Assembly (NCBI GenBank): GCA_029571985.1
Contig: JAKQVC010000160.1
Location: 36,864-100,863 of the forward strand
Origin: Bacteroidota bacterium
Lineage (GTDB): Bacteria > Bacteroidota > Bacteroidia > Chitinophagales > BACL12
DNA length: 64,000 nucleotides
Direction: 5' to 3'
A program made the translations under genes and the position numbers. Below, piece after piece: positions 45,251 to 61,925 of the stretch (position 1 is the stretch's first letter; each line of letters opens with the position of its first letter). Under the pieces are notes generated by a model. The model had not been told where the DNA came from and ran no database searches. It was given only the letters and a program-made list of their open reading frames with translations.

Positions 45251-45298
45251 TGCGGAGGTGCGGATGTGCGGATGTGCGGATGTGCGGAGGTGCGGACG
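45251..45298. repeat. tandem octamer array (TGCGGAKG x6)
   Basis: Read directly: tgcggagg tgcggatg tgcggatg tgcggatg tgcggagg tgcggacg. It lies in a 509-bp non-coding gap. Confidence 0.9.
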
Positions 45299-45661: not shown

Positions 45662-45695
45662 AAAGAGGCTGCCATAATAAAGTGACAGCCTCTTT
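45662..45695 (-). terminator. candidate terminator of the RCC1-repeat gene
   Basis: aaagaggctg / cagcctcttt, a 10-bp perfect stem with a 14-nt loop, 20 nt downstream of the stop at 45716. The U-tract on the minus strand is interrupted (ttattatat). Confidence 0.45.
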
Positions 45696-45715
45696 ACTGT
45701 TTGAAATCATATAAA

Positions 45716-47134: not shown

Positions 47135-47242
47135 AAGGGTAATTTCAACTAAAGGTAAAAAAAAACAGTAAACGGAGGCTATCTGTTTCAAGAAGTTTTT
47201 CTCCGATGTGCGCCGAAAAACTTCACTTTGGGGCAGGCACAC

Positions 47243-47542
47243 TCACTCTATTTTCACTATTGAACCCGACTGAATGAAGTGTTCTTTGTCGTTTATGTAA
47301 AAGGTGTAAACGCCTGGTGGCAGATGCTTTAGGTGAACAGGTTGATTACTGACAACATTTGGATTGTTATAAACAGGGACGCCGGCTGAATTAATAATCT
47401 GGAGATTAAAAGTATTCATGTTTTGAAATGCATTTTGAAAATATACCAGATCAACTACCGGGTTAGGGAAAACGGTAAACAAATCTTTAGGAGAAGGATC
47501 TGCAATGACAACAATCATTAGCCAGAGGTGGTTGCAGAGCAA
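47243..47542 (-). pseudogene. stand-alone T9SS C-terminal sorting domain ORF (likely remnant of a truncated cargo gene)
   Basis: The 99-codon ORF has only a TTG start and consists almost entirely of a sorting domain (FTVFPNPVVDLVYFQ...LPPGVYTFYINDK...GSIVKIE). It has no signal peptide or cargo domain and ends 1 nt before the extended RCC1 ORF. Confidence 0.45.
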
Positions 47543-47567
47543 CCACGTATGTTCATCACTTACTCGT

Positions 47568-47603
47568 CATTGCGAGCCGCGACCCAAGGAGCGGCGAAGC
47601 AAT
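47568..47603. repeat. GC-rich imperfect hairpin (cattgcgagccgc ... gcggcgaagcaat)
   Basis: Stems attgc/gcaat and ccgc/gcgg with an internal loop. The ...cattgcgag...cgaagcaatc... motif is a dispersed repeat type I recall from Bacteroidota genomes. It shares GGCGAAGC and TAGCCGAT with the 45320-45365 region. Confidence 0.5.
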
Positions 47604-47633
47604 CTAGCCGATACGCAAGAGCGTAATGCTATT

Positions 47634-47668
47634 ATTCCTCATTCCTCATTCCTCATTCATTATTCCTC
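47634..47668. repeat. tandem heptamer array (ATTCCTC-type, 5 units)
   Basis: attcctc attcctc attcctc attcatt attcctc, read directly. Confidence 0.9.
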
Positions 47669-47676
47669 CATTAAAA

Positions 47677-47692
47677 GGTAGTGAGCAGTGGG
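47677..47692. repeat. left arm of an imperfect inverted repeat (ggtagtgagcagtggg)
   Basis: Matches 15 of 16 positions of the reverse complement of part of 47799-47822 (gggtagtgagtagtgagtagtggg). Confidence 0.7.
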
Positions 47693-47798
47693 ACAATGCA
47701 GGGATTTTGGTGGAGCAGGAGATTATACTTTCGGTTTTTATTATCATAAGAAAAAGCTGCATTCTATGGCCGTAGGCCTTATTGTATTTGTCTCAATA

Positions 47799-47822
47799 CC
47801 CACTACTCACTACTCACTACCC
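47799..47822. repeat. right arm of the inverted repeat; CACTACT heptamer mini-array
   Basis: cc cactact cactact cactac cc, read directly. Complementary to 47677-47692. Confidence 0.8.
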
Positions 47823-47840
47823 GCCATTTCAAGACAAAAC

Positions 47841-47887
47841 TCCTCATTCCTCATTCCTTATTCCTCTTTCCTAATTCCTCTTTCCCC
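47841..47887. repeat. tandem heptamer array (ATTCCTY-type, ~6.5 degenerate units)
   Basis: tcctc attcctc attcctt attcctc tttccta attcctc tttcccc. Same unit and same strand orientation as 47634-47668. Confidence 0.85.
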
Positions 47888-47950
47888 AATTCACCTAAAG
47901 GCCAGTCAATCCCGCTCAACAAAATCCCTTAATCCTTAAACGGCATTCCT

Positions 47951-47958
47951 TATCTTTG
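47951..47958 (+). promoter_or_regulatory. candidate -7 promoter box of korAB (TATCTTTG)
   Basis: TAnnTTTG match 24 nt upstream of the ATG at 47982. Confidence 0.45.
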
Positions 47959-47981
47959 CACAAATTTTACTTCTCCTGAGT

Positions 47982-49811
47982 ATGAACATCCAGACTATTG
48001 AAGATGTCGTAATTAAGTTCGCAGGCGATTCCGGGGATGGAATGCAGCTTACAGGCGGACAATTTACCAACAACACAGCCCTTATGGGCGCCGATTTAGC
48101 AACGTTTCCTGACTTCCCGGCGGAAATTCGGGCACCTATAGGCACTTTGCCGGGTGTGTCGGGCTTTCAGCTCCATTTCGGCAGCCGCAAAATCTTTACC
48201 CCCGGCGATCATTGCGATGTGCTGGTGGCTATGAACGTTGCGGCCTTGAAGGTAAACCTGGGCAACCTGAGAAAGGGCGCCATTGTTATCGTGAATACCG
48301 ACGGGTTCGACCAAAAAAATATGCGACTGGCTAACGCCGAAACCAATCCGTTGGAAGATGGAACGCTGGATGGCTATGTGGTGATCAAAATTGATGTGAC
48401 GAAGCTGACACGCGAAGCCTTAAGCGAAATCCAAATGGGGGTTAAGGAAAAAGACCGTTGCAAAAACATGTTTGTATTGGGCTTCCTCTACTACATGTAT
48501 AGCCGCACCCTCGATTCAACTGAGCGCTTCCTCAACAGCAAATTCAGCAAAAAACCGGATGTATTGGAGGCTAACCTCCGTGCCTTGCGCGCCGGTTATA
48601 ATTATGCCGACACAACAGAGGTTTTTGCCTCTCGTTATAAAGTAGAAGCAGCCAAACTGGAGCCGGGTACCTACCGCTCTATCATGGGAAATGAAGCAGC
48701 TGCCATGGGCTTTGTGGCCGCTAGTCAGAAATGCGGATTGCCGCTGTTTTTGGGCTCTTATCCCATTACGCCGGCATCAGATATCCTGCACTACTTGTCT
48801 TATAACAAGAATTTTGGTGTGCGGACCTTCCAGGCGGAAGATGAAATTGCTGCTATCTGCTCTTCTATTGGTGCTTCATTTGGTGGTCATTTAGCGATTA
48901 CGACTACTTCCGGCCCTGGTGTTGCACTCAAAGGTGAAGCGATGGGTTTGGCCGTGATGCTGGAAATACCATTGGTTGTGGTGAATATTCAACGTGCCGG
49001 TCCATCAACCGGTATGCCTACCAAAACTGAGCAGGCCGACTTATTACAGGCATTATACGGTCGCAACGGAGAAAGCCCGATGGTGGTGATTTCTGCAGCG
49101 CGTCCGAGCGATGCATTTGATGTGGCTTTCGAATCTTGCCGCATTGCATTGAATCATATGACCCCGGTAATGATGTTAAGCGATGGATATATTGCCAATG
49201 GCGCCGAGCCTTGGAAATTCCCGCAAAGCAAAGACCTGCCTGAAATTCCGGTAAAATTTGCTGAGCCAATTACAGATGGTTCAGTTTACAAACCATACGA
49301 TCGGGATGAGAAATTGAGCCGTCCTTGGGCGATTCCGGGAACGAAAGGACTCGAACACCGTATTGGTGGTTTGGAGAAAGCGAACATCACCGGAAATATT
49401 TCCTACGACGCAGAAAACCATGAATTCATGGTGAAACTGCGTGATGAAAAAGTAGAGCGTATTGCCGATTATATTCCACTGCAAAAAATTGAAAGCGGTC
49501 CTGAAAAAGGTAAAGTATTGGTACTCGGATGGGGATCTACTTACGGCGCTATTCAAAGTGCAGTAAACCAATTGTTAGCGGATGGATATTCTGTTGCGCA
49601 TGCACATGTGCGTTATCTGAAACCATTCCCTAAAAACCTGGGCGAAATTCTCTTCAATTATGATAAAGTAATTGTACCTGAGATTAATAATGGTCAACTG
49701 GTTAAAGTAATTCGTGATAAATACATGATACCTGCCATTCCATTTAATAAAATCAAAGGCACGCCAATTACCAGTGCAGAATTGATTGATGTAATCATGA
49801 AAAATTATTAA
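47982..49811 (+). CDS. korA: 2-oxoglutarate/2-oxoacid:ferredoxin oxidoreductase subunit alpha (fused gamma-alpha)
   Basis: 609 aa. The N-terminus VIKFAGDSGDGMQLTG is gamma-domain-like, followed by the alpha domain (GSYPITPASDI). Directly followed by the TPP-binding beta subunit. Confidence 0.9.
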   Translation: MNIQTIEDVVIKFAGDSGDGMQLTGGQFTNNTALMGADLATFPDFPAEIRAPIGTLPGVSGFQLHFGSRKIFTPGDHCDVLVAMNVAALKVNLGNLRKGAIVIVNTDGFDQKNMRLANAETNPLEDGTLDGYVVIKIDVTKLTREALSEIQMGVKEKDRCKNMFVLGFLYYMYSRTLDSTERFLNSKFSKKPDVLEANLRALRAGYNYADTTEVFASRYKVEAAKLEPGTYRSIMGNEAAAMGFVAASQKCGLPLFLGSYPITPASDILHYLSYNKNFGVRTFQAEDEIAAICSSIGASFGGHLAITTTSGPGVALKGEAMGLAVMLEIPLVVVNIQRAGPSTGMPTKTEQADLLQALYGRNGESPMVVISAARPSDAFDVAFESCRIALNHMTPVMMLSDGYIANGAEPWKFPQSKDLPEIPVKFAEPITDGSVYKPYDRDEKLSRPWAIPGTKGLEHRIGGLEKANITGNISYDAENHEFMVKLRDEKVERIADYIPLQKIESGPEKGKVLVLGWGSTYGAIQSAVNQLLADGYSVAHAHVRYLKPFPKNLGEILFNYDKVIVPEINNGQLVKVIRDKYMIPAIPFNKIKGTPITSAELIDVIMKNY

Positions 49812-49880
49812 TCCCGAGCGATTTATAACACAAGCAACATTTTGTGACTATATAATTGCATTTAAGCATAAAGAAATACA

Positions 49881-50906
49881 ATGAGCGAAGTAGCACAACA
49901 ACTTACAGCAAAAGATTTCCAAACCGACCAGGAAGTGCGTTGGTGTCCGGGATGTGGTGATTATTCCATCCTGAAACAAGTGCATACCGTTTTACCACAA
50001 TTAGGTATTGCGCGCGAAGATATTGTAGTAGTGTCCGGAATCGGCTGTAGCAGCCGTTTTCCTTACTATACCAACACGTTTGGTATGCACAGTATTCACG
50101 GTCGCGCAACAGCTATCGCTTCCGGTTTAAAAGCCGCACGTCCTGATTTAAGCGTGTGGATTGTTACCGGTGATGGAGATGGATTATCCATCGGTGGTAA
50201 TCATATGATTCACCTGTTACGCCGCAACTTTAATGTGAATGTTTTGCTGTTTAACAATGAGATTTATGGCCTTACTAAAGGACAATATTCACCAACATCT
50301 CAATTAGGTAAAGTAACGAAATCTACACCTATGGGTTCTGTAGATCATCCGTTTAATCCTGCTGCTTTAGCATTGGGTGCGGATGCTACTTTTGTTGCCC
50401 GTAGTATGGATCGTGATCCTGCACATTTGCAGGAAGTACTCATTCGCGCAAATCAACATAAAGGAACTTCTTTCACAGAAATTTATCAGAACTGTAATAT
50501 CTTCAATGATGGCGCATTTGAAGTATTTACAGAAAAAGCTTCCAAGAAAGAGAATGACTTATTTGTAAAAAATGGTCAGCCGTTAGTATTTGGCGAATCA
50601 GATAATAAGGGTATCAAATTGGATGGCTTTACACCAATTGTGGTCGACTTAAACGATGGCCACTCTAAAGATGATTTATGGATACACAACGAAAATGATA
50701 TCTATAAGGCACAAATTCTGGTGCGCATTTTCGATGACCCAACTGTTGAAGGCCATATGCCAAGACCATTCGGGGTATTCTATGAAAATCCGAACAGGGC
50801 TACATACGAAGACTTAATGACCGCTCAGTTAGATGCCGCAAAAGCTAAGGGTGAAGGAAACCTGGATAAGCTGCTGCGTGGTAACGAAACCTGGGAGATT
50901 AAATAA
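49881..50906 (+). CDS. korB: 2-oxoglutarate/2-oxoacid:ferredoxin oxidoreductase subunit beta
   Basis: RWCPGCGDYSIL and the TPP motif GDGDGLSIGGNH...NNEIYGLTKGQ. Confidence 0.9.
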   Translation: MSEVAQQLTAKDFQTDQEVRWCPGCGDYSILKQVHTVLPQLGIAREDIVVVSGIGCSSRFPYYTNTFGMHSIHGRATAIASGLKAARPDLSVWIVTGDGDGLSIGGNHMIHLLRRNFNVNVLLFNNEIYGLTKGQYSPTSQLGKVTKSTPMGSVDHPFNPAALALGADATFVARSMDRDPAHLQEVLIRANQHKGTSFTEIYQNCNIFNDGAFEVFTEKASKKENDLFVKNGQPLVFGESDNKGIKLDGFTPIVVDLNDGHSKDDLWIHNENDIYKAQILVRIFDDPTVEGHMPRPFGVFYENPNRATYEDLMTAQLDAAKAKGEGNLDKLLRGNETWEIK

Positions 50907-50927
50907 TCGGTATTTGAATACTATTTG

Positions 50928-50955
50928 AAGACGCCCCTTGTGGCGTCTTTTTTTA
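50928..50955 (+). terminator. rho-independent terminator of korAB
   Basis: aagacgcc / ggcgtctt stem with a 6-nt loop, followed by a T-run (tttttttt). Confidence 0.7.
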
Positions 50956-51185
50956 TGTATACCGGCTGAATCTCCTGCTGGCAAAGGCTTTGCGCAACCT
51001 GGACAGGTCGTTTGCCAGGGTAGGAAGCCCCAAAACCTGTCAGGTTAACCTGTTTGACGTATGTCTTTTCGGTGTCATAAAACGCACGGAAATGTAATGG
51101 GTTGAAGGTTTTATCTATATATAATTTCAATCCTTTTCTTACCTTTATTATCCCTAAGGCATATTAGGAGCAATAAACCCGTATT

Positions 51186-53255
51186 ATGAAAAAGCTTTTA
51201 CTCTCTTTAATGATGGCTGCACCTGTATTGGTGTGGAGTCAGTGTACTACAACAAATGCCACGTCATGCGTGTGTTTAGACGGCAGTTCTGAATGTGATT
51301 TATTACCAGACATTACCGCTTCTTATGATTTATTAGAAGAAGCAGATGAAACGGTAGAAACACCCGGCGAATTGCGACTTTCTGTTGGAACGCCCAATAT
51401 TGGACACGGACCACTGCGCGTAACCGCTACAGATTACTTTGTTTGTGGTGGCGATACGATTTACAGTCCGGGCGGATTAGCCGTTTGTCCTGATGGAACT
51501 TCCCCTCGTCAGATTATTAACCAGCGCATCTATCATAAAAATGGTTCTGAAATGACCTGGTATGAAGTTGCAGCCGGTACAATGACTTACCATCCTGACC
51601 ATGGTCACTTTCATACAGATAACTGGGGTGTTTATACTTTGCGCAAGCCTATCGATGGCGTAACCGATCCAACCGAATGGACAATTGTTGGTTACGGAAC
51701 AAAAATGGGTTTCTGTTTGATGGATTTAGCAAACTGTGCTTCACCATCTAATTATGGCTATTGCCGTGAAGATGACGGCACTGTTGTTACCAATGATATT
51801 GATAATTATGGCTTAGGTGGCGGTGGATATAACTGCGTAGTAACCAACCAGGGTATTTCTGTTGGATACCTCGATATTTACGATTACTATTTAGATGGTA
51901 TGTCAATTACCATTCCGGAAGGCGTTTGTAATGGTGATTATTATATCGTTGCTGAAATCGATCCATTTAATAATTATCTGGAAGAAAGCGATAACAATAA
52001 CGTAATTGCCGTTCCTATTACCCTGACTGACCAGCCTGAAACAATTGAGTCTGTTTCTGTTGCACATTCAGCCGGTGCATTTTTAGGTGGTGATGTTTTG
52101 AAGATATGTGCTTCTGAGGTTGTTGAGTTAAGTGTTCCTCCAATTGGAACATCTTATTTATGGTCAAACGGAGCAATTTCAAATACAATTACCATTACAG
52201 AATCTGGCACTTATTCTTGCTTTATTACTCGCGAATGTGGTGATGTATACAGCGATACCATTGTAGTTGAAATGATTTCATCTGAGGTTCCGGTTATTAC
52301 TCCTGCACCTGTTGTTTGTATTGGTGAATCAACCACACTTACAGCAACCGGCGATGGTATTATCAATTGGTACACCGCTGAAGTTGGCGGAACCTATTTA
52401 GGTTCAGGTGAAACTTTAGAAACCGGTGAGTTGTTTGAGAACACTATGTTCTATGCAGATAATGAAACACAAATCTTATCTCCGATAGATGGAAATGTTG
52501 GTCAGGTTAACCACGCGGGCTCTGATTACAGCACAGGTACTCCATACAATGGTTATGAAGTGTTTGATGCTATCGAAGATTTAACCTTGAACAGTGTAAA
52601 AGTATATACAGATTATCCAGGTGAACGTGAAATTGAATTGCGTGATGCCAGCGGTGCTTTGGTTACATCAGCTGTAGTAAATATTCCAAGCGGAACAACC
52701 GTTATTGATTTAGGTTTCGATGTACCAGCAGGTTCGAATTATCGCCTCGGTACCAGCGATTCAAAAAATACAGATGTATTTGGTGATATCAGCCCAAGAT
52801 TAAAGCGCAGCTCATCAGGAACTGAGTATCCTTATACGATTGATGGATTAATCAGCATCACAAACTCCAGTTTTGATGAAACACGTTGGTATTATTTCTA
52901 TGATTGGAGTGTGAGTGGAGATGCGGTTTTTGTGTGTCCGAGCGATCGTACAGGAACTGAAGTGGAAGTTAAAGTGTGCAGTAGTATTGGCGACATATCT
53001 ACTTTAAATAGCCTTGATATCTATCCAAACCCAACTAACGGACAGTTTACGGTTAATCTGAATACATTGCCGGTAAGCGAAATGCAAATAACTGTTTGTA
53101 ATGTAACGGGTGCGCAGGTGTACAGCACAATTCTGCAAAATCCGAACGGCAGCGTTCAATTACCTGTAGATATCAGTGGCGTTGCTTCTGGTGTGTATCA
53201 GGTTAAACTTACTGCCAATGGCAAATCTATCAGCCGCAGTATTGTTGTTGAATAA
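51186..53255 (+). CDS. T9SS-secreted protein with an N-terminal lysyl-oxidase-like (copper amine oxidase, LTQ-type) domain
   Basis: Signal peptide. YHPDHGHFH (nt 51591 onward) aligns with the LOX copper site WHSCHQHYH. GTKMGFCLMD aligns with GHKASFCLED (LTQ Lys). NCVVTNQGISVGYLDIYDYYLDGMSITIPEGVCNGDYYIVAEIDPFNNYLEESDNNNV aligns with [57 protein letters not shown]. Ig-like middle region and a C-terminal YPNPTNGQFTVNL...GVYQVKL...SIVVE sorting domain. Confidence 0.7.
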   Translation: MKKLLLSLMMAAPVLVWSQCTTTNATSCVCLDGSSECDLLPDITASYDLLEEADETVETPGELRLSVGTPNIGHGPLRVTATDYFVCGGDTIYSPGGLAVCPDGTSPRQIINQRIYHKNGSEMTWYEVAAGTMTYHPDHGHFHTDNWGVYTLRKPIDGVTDPTEWTIVGYGTKMGFCLMDLANCASPSNYGYCREDDGTVVTNDIDNYGLGGGGYNCVVTNQGISVGYLDIYDYYLDGMSITIPEGVCNGDYYIVAEIDPFNNYLEESDNNNVIAVPITLTDQPETIESVSVAHSAGAFLGGDVLKICASEVVELSVPPIGTSYLWSNGAISNTITITESGTYSCFITRECGDVYSDTIVVEMISSEVPVITPAPVVCIGESTTLTATGDGIINWYTAEVGGTYLGSGETLETGELFENTMFYADNETQILSPIDGNVGQVNHAGSDYSTGTPYNGYEVFDAIEDLTLNSVKVYTDYPGEREIELRDASGALVTSAVVNIPSGTTVIDLGFDVPAGSNYRLGTSDSKNTDVFGDISPRLKRSSSGTEYPYTIDGLISITNSSFDETRWYYFYDWSVSGDAVFVCPSDRTGTEVEVKVCSSIGDISTLNSLDIYPNPTNGQFTVNLNTLPVSEMQITVCNVTGAQVYSTILQNPNGSVQLPVDISGVASGVYQVKLTANGKSISRSIVVE

Positions 53256-53278
53256 ATAAAATTGAAATAATAATTATG

Positions 53279-53308
53279 GCCTGTCATGTATATGACAGGC
53301 TTTTTTTT
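53279..53308 (+). terminator. rho-independent terminator
   Basis: gcctgtcat / atgacaggc stem with a 4-nt loop, followed by 8 T. Confidence 0.7.
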
Positions 53309-53392
53309 GCCTGTAACAAAAACAATTAGGGTTGATTACCCTTGCGTTTCCATTTGTTGGTATTCAAGTTGATTTTGCTGTGTAGATAGTCA

Positions 53393-53430
53393 TAAAAAAA
53401 AGAGGCTGCTCCTCAGTGAAGCAACCTCTT
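53393..53430 (-). terminator. rho-independent terminator of the 53454-54239 gene
   Basis: On the minus strand, an agaggttgc / gcagcctct stem (one G-U pair) is followed by 8 U. Confidence 0.55.
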
Positions 53431-53453
53431 TTAGAGTAGTGTTCGTTCAGCTA

Positions 53454-54239
53454 TTAAAACATATAACCAAGGCAAATGCCCATGAAACGTATTCCATAAA
53501 ATGCACCTTTTAATTCAGCATCAACATCACCCAGTCCGGTGGCAGGATTGTCTGTTACGGTTGCGTCAACATTCCAACCTGGAATACTGTTTCCAATATC
53601 TTCTATATCCTGCTCTAATTTAATTTTATCATTATCATCTACCGGGCGATTGTCATCTCCATAAGAGCTGCCACTTAAGTAACCGACATATGGTCCGGCA
53701 ATCCACCAGTCGAGGGCGAAATTTTTACCAAGATTCCATTGAACGCCAATCATACCGCCCGCACCAATGCCTGTAAACGTGGTGGTAATAAATGGATTAT
53801 GTTCACCATCGCTTAAATTAAACGAATAGGTGCCTTCGTGCTGCATATGCATATAGCGGATGAAAGTACTGCCATACACACCAAATGGTGCACCTTTAAT
53901 TTCCTGATAAAAACGGTATTCAGCCGTCACATTCACAGTATTAAAAATAGTTGAGTTAATGGCAGATTCGGCCTGTGCATTTCCTTCAAAAAGATTTAGT
54001 AAGGCACTTTTAAACGGCAATGGTTGATTGGGCGCATAGCCAAATGCTAAACCCACCGATTGCTTTCTGTTTAATACCCGCTCATACGCCATGGTGTAAT
54101 TGCCAAAGCCGGCTGCAGATAAGTTGAACTTTACAATGTTCATTTTTGGAGTGGCCAAAGGTGTGGTTACACCCTCTGTTTGTGCAAATGTACTTACTCC
54201 TGCAATGCATGCGATAATACCAAGAAGTATTTTTTTCAT
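53454..54239 (-). CDS. outer-membrane beta-barrel protein (function unknown)
   Basis: Signal peptide MKKILLGIIACIAGVSTFAQ, alternating strands, and a terminal ...CLGYMF. Confidence 0.6.
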   Translation of the reverse strand: MKKILLGIIACIAGVSTFAQTEGVTTPLATPKMNIVKFNLSAAGFGNYTMAYERVLNRKQSVGLAFGYAPNQPLPFKSALLNLFEGNAQAESAINSTIFNTVNVTAEYRFYQEIKGAPFGVYGSTFIRYMHMQHEGTYSFNLSDGEHNPFITTTFTGIGAGGMIGVQWNLGKNFALDWWIAGPYVGYLSGSSYGDDNRPVDDNDKIKLEQDIEDIGNSIPGWNVDATVTDNPATGLGDVDAELKGAFYGIRFMGICLGYMF

Positions 54240-54298
54240 GATGATTGACTTTTATGCAAGTTAAACAATTTCGGTTAGTATGAATAAAGTTGTAAGGT

Positions 54299-54844
54299 TT
54301 AGTTGGTTGAACTAAGCTTTCCTTCGCAATAAGCCTGCAACAGTTTTAAGGCGATTTCCATATCCTTTCCCATCATTTTGGGTAGCATACGTCCGAGGAT
54401 CTTCGCGAAACCGCCTCGTTTGGTTAATCCGCTTACCGTCCATTTAACTGCATAATGCTCTTCTTTTATTTCTTCCAGCGTAAAGGTGAATTCCATTTTA
54501 AATAAACCTTTATTAAAGGCAGATTGTATGTGTATTTCCCGATAAGGGTCAGTAGCAGATATTTCCATTTTTCCGGCACCCATTTTTTTACCTTTCCATT
54601 CCATCCAACTTTCCTTTCCTTGGGTTTCATCACTGTAGGTTAATACAATAGTCGGGTCTCTTTCCGGACTCCATTGGCTCCATATTTTCCAGGTGCTCAG
54701 GTTGTCGATGGTATTAAAAATATGTTTCTTATCCGCTTTTATCACGATTGTTTTATGGAAACGGTACGCACGCGGTATAAATATGCCAACAACAATAATG
54801 CACGCAAATAATCCGGCTATGACGATGAGTATATTGGTAATCAT
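54299..54844 (-). CDS. SRPBCC (START/polyketide-cyclase-like) family protein with an N-terminal TM anchor
   Basis: TM helix, then ...FNTIDNLSTWKIWSQWSP..., a pattern typical of the widespread Bacteroidota SRPBCC family. Confidence 0.65.
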   Translation of the reverse strand: MITNILIVIAGLFACIIVVGIFIPRAYRFHKTIVIKADKKHIFNTIDNLSTWKIWSQWSPERDPTIVLTYSDETQGKESWMEWKGKKMGAGKMEISATDPYREIHIQSAFNKGLFKMEFTFTLEEIKEEHYAVKWTVSGLTKRGGFAKILGRMLPKMMGKDMEIALKLLQAYCEGKLSSTN

Positions 54845-54873
54845 AAAGTATAAAAATCTGTATTACAGGTATC

Positions 54874-57702
54874 TTATTTTAATTTAGGCACCAGATACCT
54901 GCCGGTATAACTGTTTTTTTCTTTCTCAATGCCTTCCGGCGGTCCGGCATATAATAAATAGCCGCCTTTTTCGCCGCCTTCTGGTCCGAGGTCGATTAAA
55001 TAATCAGCGCATTTGATTACTTCAAGGTTGTGTTCAATCACCAGCACGGAATGTCCGATTTCAATCAGCGCATTAAACGCATCCATTAATTTATGGATAT
55101 CGTGAAAATGCAATCCGGTTGTTGGTTCATCGAAAATAAATAGGATATGCTCACGGCCTTTTCCTTTTCCCAGAAAACTGGCAAGTTTTACGCGTTGTGC
55201 TTCTCCGCCTGAAAGGGTGCTGCTGCTTTGGCCAAGTTTGATATACCCGAGACCAACATCGTAAAGCGGTTGCAGTTTTTGTACGATATCTTTTTCGTCC
55301 TGCAAGAAATGAATGGCTTCTTCAACACTCAGGGCAAGTAATTCGGAAATGTTTTTTCCCTTGTATTGCACTTCCAGAATTTCATCTTTAAACCTGTGCC
55401 CATTGCAATCTTCACACACCAGATGTACGTCAGCCAGAAATTGCATCTCAACAACAATTTCGCCTTCACCTTTGCAGGTTTCACAACGCCCGCCATCAAC
55501 ATTGAAGCTAAAGAATCCGGATTTATAACCACGCATTTTCGACAGTGGCTGATTGGCATACAATTCGCGAATTTCATCATATGCTTTCACATAAGTAACC
55601 GGATTGCTGCGCGATGATTTTCCGATGGGATCCTGATCTACTAATTCTACTTGTGTTATGCTGCGGACATCTCCTTCAATGGTTTTAGAAATAAATGCTG
55701 TATCGCTGCTGTCGTCCAGCATTTTAACCAGTTCGGGATAAAGGATGTGTTTTATCAAAGTTGTTTTCCCGCTGCCACTCACACCTGAAACTGCCACGAG
55801 ATTATTTAGCGGAATGGTTACATCAATATGTTTCAGATTATGCATAGACGCACCGTTTACCTGAATTTTCCTATAACTTTTCCGACGCGTTCGTGGAAGG
55901 GCAATTTGCTTTGTGGCATTCAGATAATTACCGGTCAGGCTTTTCGGGTCGTCGATGATTTCCTGAATATTACCTTCACTTACAACCTTGCCACCATGTA
56001 TCCCGGCAGCAGGTCCGATATCAATAATGTGATCTGCATTGCGAATAACTTCTTCTTCATGCTCAACAACAACAACCGTATTCCCTAAATTGCGCAAGCG
56101 CTTGAGTACAGTTACCAGTCTCTCTGTATCTCTTGGATGTAAACCTACACTTGGTTCATCCAAAATATATAATGAAGAGGTCAGGTTACTACCTAAGGTG
56201 CGGGTTAAATTAATGCGTTGTGTTTCACCACCGCTGAGCGTATTACTTCTTCGGTTAAGTGTGAGATAGCCTAATCCGAGATCAAGCATATAAGTAATAC
56301 GACTTCTAATTTCCAATAGAATACGCGCCGCAACTTTTGTTTCAAAAGCATTAAGCTGTATGCTATTGATATATAATTCCAGATCCTCAATTTGCATGTC
56401 CACTAATTCGGCAATGGATTGGTCATTTATTTTTACATATTGTGCATCCTGACGTATACGACTTCCATGACATTCGGGACAAGTAGTTTTTCCGCGATAG
56501 CGAGCCAGCATTACGCGGTATTGTATTTTATATGCATTTTCTTCCAGCATTTTAAAGAACTGGTCAAGTCCCCAAAAATGCTCGTTGCCTGTCCACAGTA
56601 ATTGATATTGTTCTTTTGTAAGTTGTTTAACCGGTTTATGAATTGGAAAATGAAATTTGCCGGCCACTTTAATCAGGTCTTCCTGCCACGCTTTCATTTT
56701 TTCTCCTTTCCAGCAGGCAACAGCGCCCTGATATACGGACAGTGATGTATCCGGAAAAACTAAATCCTGATCAATGCCAATTACAGTTCCAAAACCTTCG
56801 CAGCGTTTGCAGGCACCGTACGGATTATTTTGATTAAAAAAATGTGGAGAGGGTATTTCAAATATAATACCGTCGGCTTCAAAATTGTGACTAAAACTTC
56901 TGTCGTCCTGCACATCCGAGCGCACCAGACATTGTCCGTTGCCTTCAGAAAAAGCAATATCTACAGAATCGGCAATGCGCTGTCGTGTTTCTTCATCAAC
57001 CTCAGGCACTTCTGTTGTACCATCTGTTGTTTTTTGCATAACGATACGATCAATCAGCAACCATATCGGTGTTTTTGGGGAGATGGATTTGGGGTTTTCC
57101 AGCACATCATCAATTTTCACTACCCCGGTATCTGTATAAAAACGTGTAAATCCTTTTTGCTGATAGATGCGGGCCAGCTCCTCGGGTTTTCTTTTCTGAT
57201 CGCCGGAAAGGGGCACCAGTAGGAACACCTTGGCATTTCCGGGGAGGCTACATATGTAATCAACCACATCGTTCACCTCATCTTTTTTTACCTCCCGGCC
57301 AGAAACGGGGCTATAGGTGCGGCCAATTCGAGCAAACAGCAGGCGGAGGTAGTCGTAAATTTCTGTCAGGGTGCCAACCGTGCTTCGGGTGGTGCGTGTT
57401 GTTACCTTTTGATCGAGCGCTATGGCGGGGGCAATACCTTTGATATAATCGACATCCGGCTTATCTAAACGATTCATAAACTGCCTGGCATAGGCACTGA
57501 GGCTTTCGACATAGCGGCGCTGACCTTCGGCATACAGGGTGTCGAATGTCAGGCTTGATTTGCCCGATCCACTTACGCCGGTAACCACTACAAGCCGGTT
57601 GCGGGGAATGGCCACATCGATATTTTTTAGGTTATGTTCGCGGGCCCCTTTTATAAATATGGCGTCAGTATGACCGTTCTGATGGTTTTTTTTTGCTTTC
57701 AA
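54874..57702 (-). CDS. uvrA: excinuclease ABC subunit A
   Basis: 942 aa. Two ABC modules (GVSGSGKSSL, GVSGSGKTTL; LSGGETQR, LSGGEAQR) and zinc-finger cysteines (CKRCEGFG, CPECHG, CETCKGEG, CEDCNG). Confidence 0.97.
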   Translation of the reverse strand: MKAKKNHQNGHTDAIFIKGAREHNLKNIDVAIPRNRLVVVTGVSGSGKSSLTFDTLYAEGQRRYVESLSAYARQFMNRLDKPDVDYIKGIAPAIALDQKVTTRTTRSTVGTLTEIYDYLRLLFARIGRTYSPVSGREVKKDEVNDVVDYICSLPGNAKVFLLVPLSGDQKRKPEELARIYQQKGFTRFYTDTGVVKIDDVLENPKSISPKTPIWLLIDRIVMQKTTDGTTEVPEVDEETRQRIADSVDIAFSEGNGQCLVRSDVQDDRSFSHNFEADGIIFEIPSPHFFNQNNPYGACKRCEGFGTVIGIDQDLVFPDTSLSVYQGAVACWKGEKMKAWQEDLIKVAGKFHFPIHKPVKQLTKEQYQLLWTGNEHFWGLDQFFKMLEENAYKIQYRVMLARYRGKTTCPECHGSRIRQDAQYVKINDQSIAELVDMQIEDLELYINSIQLNAFETKVAARILLEIRSRITYMLDLGLGYLTLNRRSNTLSGGETQRINLTRTLGSNLTSSLYILDEPSVGLHPRDTERLVTVLKRLRNLGNTVVVVEHEEEVIRNADHIIDIGPAAGIHGGKVVSEGNIQEIIDDPKSLTGNYLNATKQIALPRTRRKSYRKIQVNGASMHNLKHIDVTIPLNNLVAVSGVSGSGKTTLIKHILYPELVKMLDDSSDTAFISKTIEGDVRSITQVELVDQDPIGKSSRSNPVTYVKAYDEIRELYANQPLSKMRGYKSGFFSFNVDGGRCETCKGEGEIVVEMQFLADVHLVCEDCNGHRFKDEILEVQYKGKNISELLALSVEEAIHFLQDEKDIVQKLQPLYDVGLGYIKLGQSSSTLSGGEAQRVKLASFLGKGKGREHILFIFDEPTTGLHFHDIHKLMDAFNALIEIGHSVLVIEHNLEVIKCADYLIDLGPEGGEKGGYLLYAGPPEGIEKEKNSYTGRYLVPKLK

Positions 57703-57755
57703 TGCGCTTTTCTTGAAACTTTTTTAACAAAATGACGTAAAAATTAACCAAACCG

Positions 57756-57786
57756 TTTGCAAATTTCAGAATCCTCTGTATATTTG
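57756..57786 (+). promoter_or_regulatory. candidate Bacteroidota promoter (-33 TTTG, -7 TATATTTG) of the ECF sigma gene
   Basis: TTTG at 57756-57759 and TAnnTTTG at 57779-57786, with 19-bp spacing, ~90 nt upstream of the ATG at 57876. Confidence 0.4.
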
Positions 57787-57875
57787 TCTACAATAACTCA
57801 CCAAAACTACTGCCTATCAGGTTCAACTTTACGCGAAACGAATAGTATTTTTTTATTCACGCACAACCTAATAGT

Positions 57876-58454
57876 ATGCAGTCCAGAACCCTTTCTGATG
57901 ACAAGCTGGTAGAATTATATCTGGCCGGCGAAGAATCTGCCCTTGGCGAACTCCTCAACCGCCACAAAGATAGGATATACACGTACATCTATCTCTTTTG
58001 TCGCGATACCCATACCGCCGAGGATCTCTTGCAGGAAACCTTTATTAAGGTGATTGACAAGTTGAGGAGTGGGAAATATCAGGAGCAAAATAAATTCCTG
58101 CCCTGGATCAGCCGCGTAGCCTACAACTTATGCATCGACTATTATCGTCGTGAGAAGCGCATGCCTAAGGTGGTAACCCGCGATGGCTTTGATATTTTCA
58201 GTGTTCTGAAATTTTCTGAGCCGGGTGCAGAGGGCAAGGTGATGGACCATGAGTTCTCCTCCCGGGTGCGCAAACTGCTGGAATATTTGCCGGAAGAGCA
58301 GCGCGAAGTAGTGGTTTTACGCCACTATATGGACCTCAATTTCCGCGAAATAGCTGAAATGACGGGCGTAAACATCAATACCGCACTGGGTCGGATGCGT
58401 TATGCCTTAATCAACCTGAGAAAGTTGATGGAAACAAAAAATATTACCATTTGA
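57876..58454 (+). CDS. ECF-type RNA polymerase sigma-70 family factor
   Basis: Region 2 (RIYTYIYLFCRDTHTAEDLLQETFIKV...WISRVAYNLCIDYYR) and region 4 HTH (FREIAEMTGVNINTALGRMRYA). Confidence 0.9.
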   Translation: MQSRTLSDDKLVELYLAGEESALGELLNRHKDRIYTYIYLFCRDTHTAEDLLQETFIKVIDKLRSGKYQEQNKFLPWISRVAYNLCIDYYRREKRMPKVVTRDGFDIFSVLKFSEPGAEGKVMDHEFSSRVRKLLEYLPEEQREVVVLRHYMDLNFREIAEMTGVNINTALGRMRYALINLRKLMETKNITI

Positions 58455-58495
58455 TATACTAAGTGGCTGATGCTGTCCGTTTTAGGTGCATATTT

Positions 58496-58759
58496 ATGGT
58501 TAAACCTAAAACATACCGCATGATCAAAACCGTTACGCAAGACAATCTTGTTCGGTTCATCTACGGTGAGATTTCTGCAGAGGAGGCCAGCCTCATTCAA
58601 GAGGCGCTAACCAGCGATCTGGAGCTTAAAGAGCTATATGATCAGTTGGTAGAAAGCAAGGCCGAACTCGATAAAATCCGCCTGCAGCCCTCACAAAAGG
58701 TGATCGACAACATTCTGAACTACAGCAGAAACTCTGCTCCAATGGAGCACCTGCAGTAA
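58496..58759 (+). CDS. small hypothetical protein co-transcribed with the ECF sigma factor (possible regulatory partner)
   Basis: Starts within 10-70 nt of the sigma stop; candidate starts are 58463 GTG, 58496 ATG and 58520 ATG. The motif LVRFIYGEISAEEASLIQEAL resembles a conserved Bacteroidota protein found after sigma genes. No TM helix. Confidence 0.5.
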   Translation: MVKPKTYRMIKTVTQDNLVRFIYGEISAEEASLIQEALTSDLELKELYDQLVESKAELDKIRLQPSQKVIDNILNYSRNSAPMEHLQ

Positions 58760-58770
58760 AGAAAAAAAAA

Positions 58771-58795
58771 CCCGGCTCAAGGCCGGGTTTTTTTT
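58771..58795 (+). terminator. rho-independent (potentially bidirectional) terminator
   Basis: 9-A run, cccggc / gccggg stem with a 5-nt loop, then an 8-T run. It begins 12 nt after the stop at 58759. Confidence 0.75.
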
Positions 58796-58851
58796 GGTGA
58801 GTGGTGAATGGTGAGTGGTGAACGGTGAATGGTGAACAATGAGTGGTGAGT
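58796..58851. repeat. tandem heptamer array (GGTGARY, 8 units)
   Basis: ggtgagt ggtgaat ggtgagt ggtgaac ggtgaat ggtgaac aatgagt ggtgagt, read directly. Confidence 0.9.
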
Positions 58852-58867
58852 GGATTGGTATGAGGAT

Positions 58868-58898
58868 AAATTTTTCAATGCAGCGCATTGAAAAATTT
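58868..58898. other. perfect 14-bp inverted repeat / hairpin with a 3-nt loop
   Basis: aaatttttcaatgc agc gcattgaaaaattt, read directly. AT-rich, not followed by a U-tract, and located between the two terminators. Confidence 0.8.
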
Positions 58899-58940
58899 CT
58901 ATTTCAAGGTTAAATGGCGAATTGAATAATCGAAAAATCA

Positions 58941-58974
58941 TTAAAATAAAAAAGGGATACATAGTATCCCTTTT
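58941..58974 (-). terminator. rho-independent terminator of dnaN
   Basis: On the minus strand, an aaaagggatac / gtatccctttt stem with a 3-nt loop is followed by UUUUUUAUUUU. Confidence 0.65.
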
Positions 58975-58998
58975 CAGTTATAATAGAATTTAAAATTT

Positions 58999-59019
58999 CA
59001 CTACTCACCACTTACCCAC
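58999..59019. repeat. CACTACT/CACCACT heptamer-like block, inverse complement of the GGTGARY array
   Basis: The reverse complement of cactactcaccacttacccac is gtgggtaagtggtgagtagtg, which resembles units of 58796-58851. Confidence 0.7.
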
Positions 59020-59024
59020 AACTT

Positions 59025-59094
59025 ATTCCTTATTCCTTATTCCTTATTCCTTATTCCTTATTCCTTATTCCTCATTCCTCATTCCTCATTCCTC
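59025..59094. repeat. tandem heptamer array (ATTCCTT x6 then ATTCCTC x4)
   Basis: Ten perfect units read directly. The array ends 2 nt from the dnaN stop codon (59097-59099). Confidence 0.95.
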
Positions 59095-59096
59095 CC

Positions 59097-60215
59097 CTAA
59101 ACGTTCATCATCACCGGCATCACCAGCATCAATAAATCTTCTGCTTCATCAGCTTCTGTAGGTAATAATAAGCCTGCGCGATTTGGTGTCGATAGTTCAA
59201 AACGAACTTCCTCGTTATCCATGGCATTGAGCATTTCTAACAGGAATTTAGCGTTGAAACCAATTTCCATATTTTCTCCGTCATATGCACAGTCAATGCG
59301 CTCATTCGCTTCATTACTGAAATCTAAATCCTGGGCACTTACTGCTATCTCGTTTCCTTTTATTTTGAGGATAACCTGATGCGTTGTTTTATTTGAGAAG
59401 ATAATGACACGACGTAATGTATTCAGAAAATCAGCGCGGTTAATGGTGAGGCGGTTCGGATTTTCCTGCGGGATAACCGCGTTGTAATCCGGATAGCGAC
59501 CTTCAATTAAACGACAAATGAGTTTCACATTGTTGTAGCTGAAGAAAGCAAACGAGCTGTTATAGCTTAAAGTAACCTGAGTTTGCTCACTCGGTAAATT
59601 AGATTTCAGCAGGTTTAAAGCTTTTTTAGGCATAATTAAGGATGAGCCTTTATCCGCTTTAATATCTGTGCGACGATATTTTACAAGTTTGTGTGCATCA
59701 GTAGCCACAAAATTTACACCATCTTTATTTAATTGGAACAATACACCTGTCATAGGTGGACGTAACTCATCATTACTGGTGGCAAAAGCTGTTTTATTGA
59801 TAACCTTTTGCAATACACCTGAAGGCAAATTAATTTCTGATAATTTATCATCGCTGGATACGCGTGGGAAATCATCGCCATTTTCGCCATTTAATTTATA
59901 CTTACCGCGATCGGTAGTAATTTCTACCTGACTGCCATCATCAGATACGCTGAAAGTTAGCGGCTGCTCAGGAAGTGTTTTCAGATAATCAACTAAAATA
60001 CGTGCAGAAATGGCAACCTTGCCTTCTGATTTCGATTCTATTTCCATCCAGGTGGTAATAGATGTCTCGAGGTCGGTTCCTGAAATTGTGAGTTTATTTT
60101 TTTCGACAACAAACAGAAAATTCTCCAGAATAGGCAACACGGTATTCGGGCTCACAACGCCATTCACTGTTTGCAGGTTGCGCAATAACGCGGTCGTGCT
60201 TACGATAAACTTCAT
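59097..60215 (-). CDS. dnaN: DNA polymerase III subunit beta (sliding clamp)
   Basis: MKFIVSTTALLRNLQTVNGVV..., LPILENFLF, three-domain length of 372 aa, and a C-terminal ...LLMLVMPVMMN-type ending. Confidence 0.95.
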   Translation of the reverse strand: MKFIVSTTALLRNLQTVNGVVSPNTVLPILENFLFVVEKNKLTISGTDLETSITTWMEIESKSEGKVAISARILVDYLKTLPEQPLTFSVSDDGSQVEITTDRGKYKLNGENGDDFPRVSSDDKLSEINLPSGVLQKVINKTAFATSNDELRPPMTGVLFQLNKDGVNFVATDAHKLVKYRRTDIKADKGSSLIMPKKALNLLKSNLPSEQTQVTLSYNSSFAFFSYNNVKLICRLIEGRYPDYNAVIPQENPNRLTINRADFLNTLRRVIIFSNKTTHQVILKIKGNEIAVSAQDLDFSNEANERIDCAYDGENMEIGFNAKFLLEMLNAMDNEEVRFELSTPNRAGLLLPTEADEAEDLLMLVMPVMMNV

Positions 60216-60237
60216 GTAGTGTTTTTTTTGAACCCGA

Positions 60238-60245
60238 CAAAGGTA
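60238..60245 (-). promoter_or_regulatory. candidate -7 promoter box of dnaN (TACCTTTG on the minus strand)
   Basis: TAnnTTTG match 23-30 nt upstream of the dnaN ATG (60215). Confidence 0.35.
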
Positions 60246-60337
60246 ACCAATACACCCTAATGTTTTTCAACAGATGTGGATACTGTTAGGGGGTTTTTTC
60301 AAAGATTTAGGTCACCCAACCGCCGCCAACAACACCT

Positions 60338-60345
60338 TATCTTTG
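60338..60345 (+). promoter_or_regulatory. candidate -7 promoter box (TATCTTTG)
   Basis: TAnnTTTG match only 5 nt upstream of the ATG at 60351, which implies a leaderless or near-leaderless mRNA if it is used. Confidence 0.3.
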
Positions 60346-60350
60346 CCTGT

Positions 60351-61925
60351 ATGAAGCTTACCCATGCCCTCATGATTGGAGCCAGCGTACTGGGACTGAT
60401 ACGTACAACCGCTTACACACAGTCATCTCCCCCCTTTACCTTATCCTTAGAGGAGGTAACTTATCCTGACTGGCCGGGACTGCACTCTTTCGTGAGCGGG
60501 GAGTGGGAAGGCCGCCGTTTGGTGATGTGTGGCCGTACGGGAGGGTTACATGGCTTTTTGCCGCCCAATCCGTTCACGCCACTGGAAGCAAATAAAGAGG
60601 TGTGGATGTTTGAACCGGAAACCGGGGCTATGTGGGAGGCCTCAACTGATGGATTGCCTAGTGAGGTGCAGGCGCAGTTGCAGAGTACGAATCCCCAGGC
60701 TTTTCAGCGGGGGCAATACCTGTATATTATTGGTGGATACGGTCGCGAACCACTCGGAACCGATATGGTTACTTTTCCAACGCTGACGGCCGTCGATTTA
60801 CAGGCGCTGGCGGAGGCCTTGGAGGCGGGTACCGAAATTGCAGGTGCTTTTAGAAGTATTTCTGACCCGATGCTGGAAATTACGGGCGGTGAGGTAGGTA
60901 TGATTGGAGATACGATTTATGTGTTTGGCGGACATTCGTTTACCGGCGAGTATAGTAAACCGGCAGGACCTCAGTTTACGCAAGTGTATACCAATCAACT
61001 CACTTCTTTTACGTTGACGGATGATGGTGAAATGTTGAGTATTGACAACATACATATTCGCACCGACACAATTGCTTTTCATCGTCGTGATTTAAATTTT
61101 GAACCCATGATGCAGGCGGATGGATCACCTGCTTTAATTGCACTGAGTGGTGTTTTTCAATATGAATCAGACGCGGTTTGGTACGAGCCTGTTATTGTTA
61201 CAGATACCGGATATGTAGTAGATGAAGCCTTTATGCAAAAAATGAATAATTATACATGTCCCGTTATATCCATGTATGACGCTCCTGACGGAACAAATTA
61301 CCATACTCTTTTAGGTGGCATTAGTCAAAACTGGTACGATGAATCTGATGGCACTTTAATAGAAGATTTAAATGTGCCTTTTGTCAATGATATTACAACA
61401 ATTATTCGCGCTGCGGATGGTTCTATGGAGCAATTTATTCAGCCTGTTACATTATCCGGATTGTTGGGAAGTAATGCTGAATTTTGGGTTTCAGCGGATG
61501 TACCTGTTTATGAAAACGGCGTAATTAAATTGCATGAAATTACTACTGAAACATGCATTGGGTATATGTTTGGCGGTATAGATGCACTTATTCCGAATTT
61601 CACGCCTTCAACTGCTTCTAATGTATTATTAAAAGTGTGCATAGTGCCAGATGAAGAAATCAGTATTGCCCAGCAGGAAATGGCAGGCGTTCGCGTTTTT
61701 CCAAATCCGGCACAAAATCAGATTTCATTCCGTAATCAAACCGGCAAGGTGATTAACACCTGGCAAATAACAGATGCCGTAGGAAACATCGTAATGTCAG
61801 GTACTGAATACCTGTTACCCGGCTATCAAAAAACCGTGCAAATTGCCGATTTGTCGACAGGCATTTATTTCATTCAGTTTCGTGGTGATGATGAGGTGTT
61901 TTTGGGGGTTTGTGTGAAGATGTGA
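60351..61925 (+). CDS. T9SS-secreted protein, probably a Kelch/galactose-oxidase-like beta-propeller
   Basis: The ATG at 60351 gives the signal peptide MKLTHALMIGASVLGLIRTTAYTQ; the track start at 60276 lacks one. YIIGGYG and YVFGGHS Kelch-like cores. C-terminal VFPNPAQNQISFRN...GIYFIQF...VCVKM sorting domain. Confidence 0.65.
   Translation: MKLTHALMIGASVLGLIRTTAYTQSSPPFTLSLEEVTYPDWPGLHSFVSGEWEGRRLVMCGRTGGLHGFLPPNPFTPLEANKEVWMFEPETGAMWEASTDGLPSEVQAQLQSTNPQAFQRGQYLYIIGGYGREPLGTDMVTFPTLTAVDLQALAEALEAGTEIAGAFRSISDPMLEITGGEVGMIGDTIYVFGGHSFTGEYSKPAGPQFTQVYTNQLTSFTLTDDGEMLSIDNIHIRTDTIAFHRRDLNFEPMMQADGSPALIALSGVFQYESDAVWYEPVIVTDTGYVVDEAFMQKMNNYTCPVISMYDAPDGTNYHTLLGGISQNWYDESDGTLIEDLNVPFVNDITTIIRAADGSMEQFIQPVTLSGLLGSNAEFWVSADVPVYENGVIKLHEITTETCIGYMFGGIDALIPNFTPSTASNVLLKVCIVPDEEISIAQQEMAGVRVFPNPAQNQISFRNQTGKVINTWQITDAVGNIVMSGTEYLLPGYQKTVQIADLSTGIYFIQFRGDDEVFLGVCVKM

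Follow-up and report, generated by a model that had tools for sequence, protein, structure and literature searches.

What is a block of tandem heptanucleotides doing directly behind the stop codon of dnaN, the gene for the beta clamp of DNA polymerase III, and does the gene make any use of it? The locus lies in a stretch of 64,000 nt (contig JAKQVC010000160.1 of assembly GCA_029571985.1, positions 36,864 to 100,863 of the forward strand; hereafter the window) from an uncultured member of the Chitinophagales (Bacteroidota) that is frequent in metagenomes of activated sludge and digesters. A first-pass annotation had described the convergent gap downstream of dnaN as the second copy of a heptamer-array architecture and had proposed that its repeats act as Shine-Dalgarno (SD)-like tracts. 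With a probability of roughly 0.7, we regard the locus as a hypervariable simple sequence repeat (SSR), or variable number tandem repeat (VNTR), that belongs with the heptanucleotide long SSRs and resembles the short tandemly repeated repetitive (STRR) sequences of cyanobacteria, is probably driven by slippage and probably has no function. The tandem copies exceed chance expectation, strains differ by whole units and the arrays are placed in non-coding DNA, all of which characterise long SSRs and VNTRs.

Organisation of the gap and its repeat units

The gap holds two arrays around an AT-rich core (Table 1). The array next to dnaN (near array) reads (GAGGAAT)4(AAGGAAT)6 in the dnaN sense, and the ten perfect ATTCCTY units previously reported, six ATTCCTT and then four ATTCCTC, were exact in the sequence, as was the distance of 2 nt (cc at 59095-59096) to the stop codon (cta, i.e. 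TAG, at 59097-59099). It is separated by a 5-base junction from the block of CACTACT-type units. The opposite array (far array) lies between the terminators of the sigma operon and of dnaN and runs GGTGAGT GGTGAAT GGTGAGT GGTGAAC GGTGAAT GGTGAAC AATGAGT GGTGAGT; the earlier count of eight GGTGARY heptamers was right as to the number of units, of which 7/8 fit that consensus and the seventh, AATGAGT, does not. The core does hold the dnaN terminator, and the "perfect 14-bp palindrome" described in it has perfect arms of 14 nt, but is a hairpin with a 3-nt loop and not an uninterrupted palindrome. The dnaN terminator was unchanged in all alleles, and the bidirectional terminator that ends the operon of the sigma gene and the 86-aa open reading frame (ORF), and borders the far array, was the same in every allele. 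Pfam assigned no family to the 86-aa ORF.

Tandem Repeats Finder (TRF) gave 10.3 copies at 98% match and 6-8 copies, while ATTCCTYATTCCTY (at most one mismatch) matched the window 16 times against 0.09 expected and GGTGARYGGTGARY six times against 0.24 expected. As the same gap occurs letter for letter in the independent assemblies GCA_035904245.1, whose contig JAMHLF010000186.1 contains the window, GCA_035355245.1 and JGI 3300010357, the window allele is not an assembly artefact. Both arrays are non-coding, being placed between the dnaN stop codon and the terminator of the neighbour. The ORFs that run over them, of 61 and 65 aa in the window (58691-58888 and 58777-58962) and a 144-aa gene call in ENA assemblies (L081 4271-4705, L084 4278-4712, L339/L345 2551-2985; L numbers are our handles for the contigs and loci collected), are repeat artefacts, because length steps of 7 nt, not a multiple of 3, keep no reading frame.

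Read in the dnaN sense, the units form a series of single substitutions, AGGAATA - AGGAATG - GGGAATG - GTGAATG - GTGAGTG - GTGAGTA, each member of which is present as real units in some allele. By this chain, the arrays of ATTCCTY and of GGTGARY units and the CACTACT block are variants of one heptamer. The GGTGARY array and the CACTAC block of the window are complementary over 20-24 nt at 79-85% and over 14 nt at 93%, which bears out the earlier proposal that the GGTGARY and CACTAC/CACCAC blocks can pair. The two arms of the type-B allele described below are 80% identical over 88 nt once one is reverse-complemented. The arrangement is that of an inverted heptamer pair as known from Xanthomonas, with the same unit on opposite strands at close distance. 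A mirrored order of units between the type-B arms, seen by eye, was dropped; shuffled orders scored as high or higher in 261/500 trials, and only the unit family is therefore common to both arms. Likewise, no weight was given to the fact that the GAGGAAT and GTGAGT blocks continue in phase (98 nt = 14 x 7), a 1-in-7 coincidence with a 1-nt block offset.

Table 1. Positions in the window of the gap, its flanking genes and the first copy of the arrays
Feature	Position	Strand	Basis
Convergent gap between sigma-factor operon (+) and dnaN (-)	58760-59096		sequence read
dnaN, DNA polymerase III beta clamp, 372 aa	59097..60215	-	three Pfam DNA_pol3_beta domains
Extracytoplasmic function (ECF)-type sigma factor gene	57876-58454	+	Pfam
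86-aa ORF downstream of sigma gene	58499-58759	+	operon partner of sigma gene, converges on dnaN
Bidirectional intrinsic terminator, AAAAAAAACCCGGC-tcaag-GCCGGGTTTTTTTT	58763..58795	.	14-nt perfect arms
Far array, eight 7-nt units	58796..58851	+	sequence read, TRF
AT-rich unique core, 147 bp	58852..58998	.	sequence read
Hairpin, perfect 14-nt arms, 3-nt loop (58882-58884)	58868..58898	.	inverted-repeat search
dnaN intrinsic terminator, GAAAAGGGATAC-tat-GTATCCCTTTTT then T-run, 12-pair stem	58949..58975	-	terminator prediction
Three CACTACT/CACCACT-type units, cactactcaccacttacccac	58999..59019	+	inverted partner of far array
Near array, ATTCCTT x6 then ATTCCTC x4	59025..59094	+	sequence read, TRF
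First copy: ATTCCTC x5, inverted ends GGTAGTGAGCAGTGGG ... CCCACTACTCACTACTCACTACC around unique core, ATTCCTY-like x6-7	47634..47885	+	pattern scans

Variation of the arrays among strains and related species

Alleles were collected from contigs encoding exactly identical DnaN or an identical sigma factor, which yielded 15 full-length gap sequences, with the same contig represented more than once in several cases, and several more that end inside the gap; an exact-pattern scan for the core in JGI metagenome contigs, aimed at more alleles, gave 0 matches. At least six allele combinations occur among contigs whose DnaN protein is 100% identical, with near arrays of 77, 98, 115, 122 or at least 118 nt and far arrays of 50, 57, 64 or 155 nt, so unit number does vary between strains. 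The near allele of the window, with three GTGAGT-type units following its GAGGAAT and AAGGAAT blocks, makes up 98 nt; another has (GAGGAAT)3(AAGGAAT)4 and three units (77 nt), and a further one (GAGGAAT)4(AAGGAAT) with at least 13 copies of the latter, its contig stopping within the array. The clean sub-blocks had been read as signs of recent expansion, and this series of (GAGGAAT)3-4 with (AAGGAAT)4, 6 or at least 13 in strains of the same DnaN agrees with that reading. Local expansions are likewise indicated by runs of one and the same variant unit in the far array, e.g. (CACTCCC)4(CATTCCC)3 and (CACTCAC)5. In the type-B near allele the ATTCCTY array, i.e. the GAGGAAT units, is absent and the CACTACT-type block is expanded to 16 or 17 GTGAGTR units (dnaN sense) that run up to a TAA stop codon (115/122 nt), and this occurs in strains that are 0-2 nt apart from others in dnaN.

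Five contigs (L081, L082, L084, L086 and L090) have 0/1119 differences in dnaN, yet are one near unit and 15 far units apart; four of them span the downstream stretch and show 0-1/950 nt differences there. One sludge run among the Logan contigs held a far-array variant with a 7-nt deletion. Array change outpaces point substitution by far. Near and far arrays are combined as A'+64, A'+50, B+155 and B+50 (near type and far length), and in L088 a type-B-like dnaN is joined to a type-A' array; such independent assortment and the L088 junction point to recombination between alleles as a probable further contributor. Many short contigs stop within the arrays (L089, L090, L098, L099), which leaves short-read assemblies fragmented.

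The core is stable by comparison, being 146 bp long in the cross-allele parse and 148 in one allele, with 4-9 differing positions between strain types. By our own estimate this divergence of 3-6% is comparable in size to that at synonymous sites in dnaN, and the core gave no sign of a hidden gene. The loop of its hairpin is reverse-complemented between strains (dnaN sense: GCT in the window, AGC in type-B and L085), and the type-B and L085 hairpins have a C/T mismatch in one arm where the arms of the window are perfect; the loop and the arm changes would both follow from a single template switch within the hairpin (quasi-palindrome correction).

The nearest species representatives have DnaN 90-91% identical to that of the window, and the array does not follow them. 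Two of these (L001, L002) carry (AATTGAY)4-6 after dnaN, and L003 and L005 have no array there, the stop codon being followed by a terminator-like hairpin (L003) or plain sequence. Absence of the array from the same position in close relatives, which the first-pass annotation had named beforehand as one half of what would speak against its proposal, was found.

The first copy and other arrays in the window

The claim that the gap repeats an architecture seen elsewhere in the window stands in part. The first copy exists, upstream of a korA-like promoter (Table 1), and both the ATTCCTY and the CACTACT families are common to the two loci in 64 kb, but the layout is different: here each side has an ATTCCTY array, both in the same orientation, and just inside these are the inverted ends GTAGTGAG.../...CTCACTAC. 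The two cores were considered as copies of one mobile element, which was rejected as they have no homology beyond the heptamer blocks.

The 170-bp core of the first copy, with its inverted GTAGTGAG-type ends (47669-47838), shows presence/absence between strains (window and L091-L100). Six other strain contigs have a single ATTCCTY array of 8 units there instead, and the window form equals such an array with a 4-unit (28-bp) duplication around the 170-bp insert. This fits an insertion or, more simply, a deletion by recombination between two direct arrays. The korA loci of related species, used as outgroups, all lack the core and are too array-rich and diverged to polarise the event. Strains at this copy differ in the upstream gene too, most having an extra 482-aa protein with a type IX secretion system (T9SS) tail. 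A palindromic element resembling the repetitive extragenic palindromic (REP) sequences, 'GTCATTGCGAGC...GCGAAGCAATC' / 'GTCATGCTGAGC...GAAGCATC', lies nearby at ~47560-47605, with a second, inverted copy in L091-type strains; the same element is found after dnaN in L040, L041, L054, L057, L064, L071 and L073/74, and in many Bacteroidota intergenic regions.

Octamer arrays also occur in the window. (ATGTGCGG) x6.6 and (GATTAGCC/GATGTGCC) x4.4 stand at 45248-45353 between a DUF1905 gene and an RCC1/T9SS gene, and a second species combines both families upstream of korA (L354 976-1260), within a higher-order repeat of ~80-95 nt whose conserved spacer ends in GCTTCGGCGG. The GC skew across the window was too noisy to give the orientation of the replication strands.

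Occurrence of comparable arrays in Bacteroidota and other phyla

Our survey covered Bacteroidota loci of 754 kb in total, selected on no other ground than that they encode DnaN; orthologous loci among them are not independent, so the counts need caution. These loci hold 53 arrays of period 5-11, 37 of them of period 7. A wider parse (period 6-11) gave 67 arrays, of which 54 are intergenic, intergenic DNA making up 11.7% of the total; 37/67 have an inverted partner within 300 nt and 6 a direct partner. Inverted arrays of 7-9-mers around a short core are common in other Bacteroidota.

Palindromes with arms of 17-63 nt and loops of 16-160 nt follow the dnaN stop codon at 0-60 nt in species of Hymenobacter and Cytophagales (L031, L033, L039, L046, L059, L063, L067, L068, L070), and many of their arms are visibly tandem 8-9-mers, e.g. 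GCAGATNNN or GATGTGCT. Both arms of L046 are perfect mirror images, with an irregular 10-nt unit included. In Pontibacter, a heptamer-armed hairpin fills one intercistronic gap between a gene ending in ...QQLTK and a gene starting with MLAILKKEFNGF (at ~1400-1475 in L022, L023, L027, L030, L049, L050, L056, L058 and L061), and its units vary by species (GAATGAA, ATTCATA, ATTCAGA, ATTCATC, TCATTAA); the first unit overlaps the stop codon in some species. The region upstream of korA always carries arrays in related Chitinophagales, with differing units, and their metagenome-assembled genomes (MAGs) are array-dense around korA/korB, with 7 arrays in 3.7 kb of L349 and 5 in 4.8 kb of another (L386 4490-4828). 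The design itself is repeated in L349 (112-303, 3315-3592), where a GTGAGT-type block and CCATTCA/CCACTCA units enclose an unrelated core of ~100 nt; the first unit there includes the TAA stop of the upstream gene. Unit families that recur over loci and species are the GATTAGCC and ATGTGCC octamers, GGTGAAT, GTATCAG and the motif GGTAGTGAGYAGTGGG.

Beyond these loci, ATTCCTY and AATTGAY arrays were found in many phyla, at at least 118 and at least 120 loci respectively against ~2 expected by our own estimate. Among the matches listed many are from Bacteroidota, and those of AATTGAY also from Cyanobacteria; with many phyla among the matches listed, no lineage-specific signal was drawn from either unit. 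Several phyla have an inverted GAGGAAT/AAGAAT-type array 15-60 nt upstream of (ATTCCTC)3-5, giving hairpins with heptamer stems (L119, L121, L138, L186, L198, L200, L203, L212, L213, L217), several of them with an outer motif TTAATGAGG...CCTCATTAA.

Interpretation of the locus and alternative explanations

The account that we favour takes the gap as a place where repeats are gained and lost. Two inverted arrays of one heptamer family would surround a stable core with the dnaN terminator and the 14-bp hairpin, and would occupy those stretches that appear to carry no essential signal, namely from stop codon to terminator and from hairpin to the terminator of the neighbour, gaining, losing and replacing units in 7-nt steps. 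The likely drivers are slipped-strand mispairing, occasional expansions of variant units and recombination between alleles. By its position between stop codon and terminator, the near array would be part of the dnaN 3' untranslated region (UTR), presumably co-transcribed as its start, with a sequence that seems not to be under selection; its abutting the stop codon looks like a by-product of filling non-essential stop-to-terminator space. Any effect would be generic and arise from the length or spacing of the 3' UTR, from an unstructured purine-rich tail, or from pairing with the far arm on terminator read-through. The arrays do not form a phase-variable contingency locus, as they lie downstream of both convergent genes.

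Several points weigh against this account. Slippage itself was not seen directly, only its expected products. Metatranscriptome contigs include dnaN and the sigma operon but end within the arrays, with no 3' end readable. Arrays are kept at orthologous positions while their units change, as upstream of korA in Chitinophagales, in the Pontibacter intercistronic gap and downstream of dnaN in Hymenobacter, which could mean selection for some array or hairpin at these places. GTGAGT-type arms stand around three unrelated cores, and the GATTAGCC and ATGTGCC octamers are shared by the window and L354; unit families that recur in this way across loci and species do not readily come from independent random slippage. 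The inverted-pair design, too, is not explained by simple slippage.

In an alternative reading, the inverted arms would pair, in read-through RNA or as a DNA cruciform, and would serve as a generic 3' end stabiliser or transcription insulator between convergent genes; only their complementarity would have to be kept, and the arm sequence itself could drift. This resembles the REP sequences and bacterial interspersed mosaic elements (BIMEs) of enterobacteria, and the STRR hairpins, for which a role in transcript stability was proposed (PMC2670836). As read-through RNA the whole 345-nt gap is predicted to form a long imperfect stem (-105.3 against -70.8 kcal/mol for shuffles, z = -6.7; z = -5.4 for the DNA), though three local hairpins contribute part of the score. 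For the near array alone and for the dnaN 3' UTR, shuffled sequences do about as well (z = -0.8), and the near array is predicted to be unstructured. An Rfam scan of 44500-60500 found no family and only sub-threshold matches on the terminator hairpin. The excess of inverted over direct partners in the survey agrees with pairing, as do the orthologous array-armed hairpins of Pontibacter and Hymenobacter with their turnover of units, and the presence of arrays in 1/86 divergent gaps against 36/420 gaps containing a gene 3' end, counts that again include orthologous, non-independent loci. At this locus, however, arm lengths are unbalanced and uncorrelated across alleles (near/far 98/57, 77/64, 77/50, 115/155, 115/50 and 122/155), which argues against strong selection for arm pairing; the ATTCCTY array of the window has no true partner, and the dnaN terminator lies between the arms, so that the far arm would be transcribed only on read-through. 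We consider such a function unlikely here. The SD-like proposal, by which (GAGGAAU)4(AAGGAAU)6 binds the 30S subunit or the 16S 3' end and tunes the stability or translation of dnaN mRNA, can draw on the place of the near array between stop codon and terminator, on its predicted lack of structure and hence accessibility, and on the resemblance of GAGG and AGGA to SD sequences. Bacteroidota start translation largely without SD pairing, and no SD usage was seen in this organism, where an SD-like 4-mer stands at -20..-4 in 3/46 genes (long ORFs) against 4/46 control positions inside genes. Moreover, GUGAGUR repeats, AAUUGAY repeats or nothing take the place of the tract in strains and species whose DnaN is identical or 90% identical, and copy number spans 7 to at least 17. 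With the purine tract swapped for other units or lost in strains and relatives, an RNA function that depends on its sequence is unlikely, and the SD-like proposal itself is highly improbable.

The recurrence of unit families can also be read as the work of a foldback element, akin to a miniature inverted-repeat transposable element (MITE), or of some repeat "writer", with the heptamer arms as terminal inverted repeats that seed many loci. Inverted arms of GTGAGT/ACTCAC type do flank three unrelated cores (both copies in the window and L349 3450-3600), the core and inner arms of the first copy are present in the window strain and the divergent L097 and absent in six other strain contigs, the direct duplication of the ATTCCTY array flanks that core, and further ATTCCTY arrays lie on sludge metagenome contigs of organism-like depth, their summed depth being 60-300x that of the flanks. 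Against such mobility, blastn of either core against the window and the loci collected at that stage returned orthologous copies only, the core in the dnaN gap contains the resident dnaN terminator and is found in every strain, its outer ends have no target-site duplication, no transposase is linked, and the polymorphism of the first copy equally fits deletion between its flanking direct arrays; a mobile element is thus very unlikely to our minds. A broader idea, which we rate as quite unlikely, is that a directed process writes a few unit families, inverted, around hairpins and terminators. It is prompted by the GTGAGT-type arms on three unrelated cores in two species, by the recurring GATTAGCC/ATGTGCC pair, and by positions that are kept while units turn over. 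Candidates would be hairpin-primed template switching combined with slippage, a foldback-type element, or an enzyme, so far unrecognised, that propagates repeats. If this were true, the role of the palindromes would be that of insulators or 3' end stabilisers able to evolve.

Relation to known repeats and significance

Heptanucleotide arrays have been noted in cyanobacteria since 1990, the year in which Mazel et al. reportedly described the STRR heptanucleotide repeats. The cyanobacterial STRRs are 7-bp units that often form hairpins, as between hupS and hupL, and are of unknown function, with transcript stability suggested (PMC2670836). The arrays studied here resemble them in having 7-nt tandem units in intergenic or intercistronic places, a hairpin-capable arrangement and perhaps also few families over many loci. 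They differ in their units (ATTCCTY/GGTGARY against CCCCAGT, TTGGTCA and CAACAGT), in their host, an uncultured member of the Chitinophagales against filamentous cyanobacteria, in that 8-mers are as common as 7-mers in this lineage, and in that strain hypervariability is shown directly. With other units and another host, they are not STRR in the strict sense (STRR1-3 of heterocystous cyanobacteria).

The heptamer SSRs of Xanthomonas (GGGAATC) and Nostoc (GGGGAYT), treated by Rehm et al. 2015 (PMC4692102), are ~90% intergenic and lie near the point where the preceding ORF ends. The GGGAATC arrays in particular are 89-93% intergenic, form 70-75 inverted pairs and vary in length between relatives while position and type are kept (PMC4692102). 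Our arrays share with both the intergenic share of about 90%, the place near the upstream ORF end, the co-oriented or convergent and rarely divergent genes, the frequent convergent inverted pairs, and the variation of length and sequence between close relatives at a kept position. The allele unit GGGAATG (as CATTCCC) is one base from the Xanthomonas unit. The phylum is another one, however, and whole arrays are swapped for a variant unit within one species. The window array units hold GG doublets only, so the G-quadruplex proposed for Xanthomonas, with its tracts of at least three G, does not apply; GGG is limited to the GGGAATG/GGGAGTG units of other alleles (CATTCCC/CACTCCC) and one degenerate junction unit of the window (GTGGGTA).

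Heptanucleotides are the commonest unit of long SSRs, for which polymerase slippage was proposed, according to Mrazek et al. 2007 as cited in PMC4679880 and PMC4692102. TAACTGA repeats are found in Beggiatoaceae, Cyanobacteria and five Bacteroidetes (MacGregor 2015; PMC4679880). The preference for a heptanucleotide unit, the intergenic place and perhaps the use of one unit at many loci are common to these and our arrays, and some Bacteroidetes intergenic regions have several different heptamer arrays side by side. TAACTGA sets, unlike ours, are mostly of 2-6 copies directly upstream of starts, whereas the arrays described here lie downstream and show far more unit variation. Each REP sequence of enterobacteria is one imperfect palindrome from a conserved family that REP-associated tyrosine transposases (RAYTs) disseminate. 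Our arrays are like REP and BIMEs in being extragenic inverted repeats at gene 3' ends and between convergent genes, and would be alike in action only if the arms act as a structured palindrome; they differ in having tandem arrays as arms, no conserved palindromic unit and no linked transposase. A literature text search found no paper with the particular unit strings of the window. What is new is a known repeat class in a lineage without a previous description of it.

Such arrays were previously known from cyanobacteria, Xanthomonas, Beggiatoaceae and a few Bacteroidetes. The findings imply nothing special about dnaN itself. In practice, short-read assemblies are interrupted by the arrays and false gene calls arise from them, and masking is advised for annotators of such MAGs. 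This activated-sludge Chitinophagales lineage is unusually rich in heptamer-type arrays, and public metagenomes hold a natural allelic series at one locus beside an essential gene, which makes the mutation rate, the symmetry of the arms and the effects on neighbouring genes approachable.

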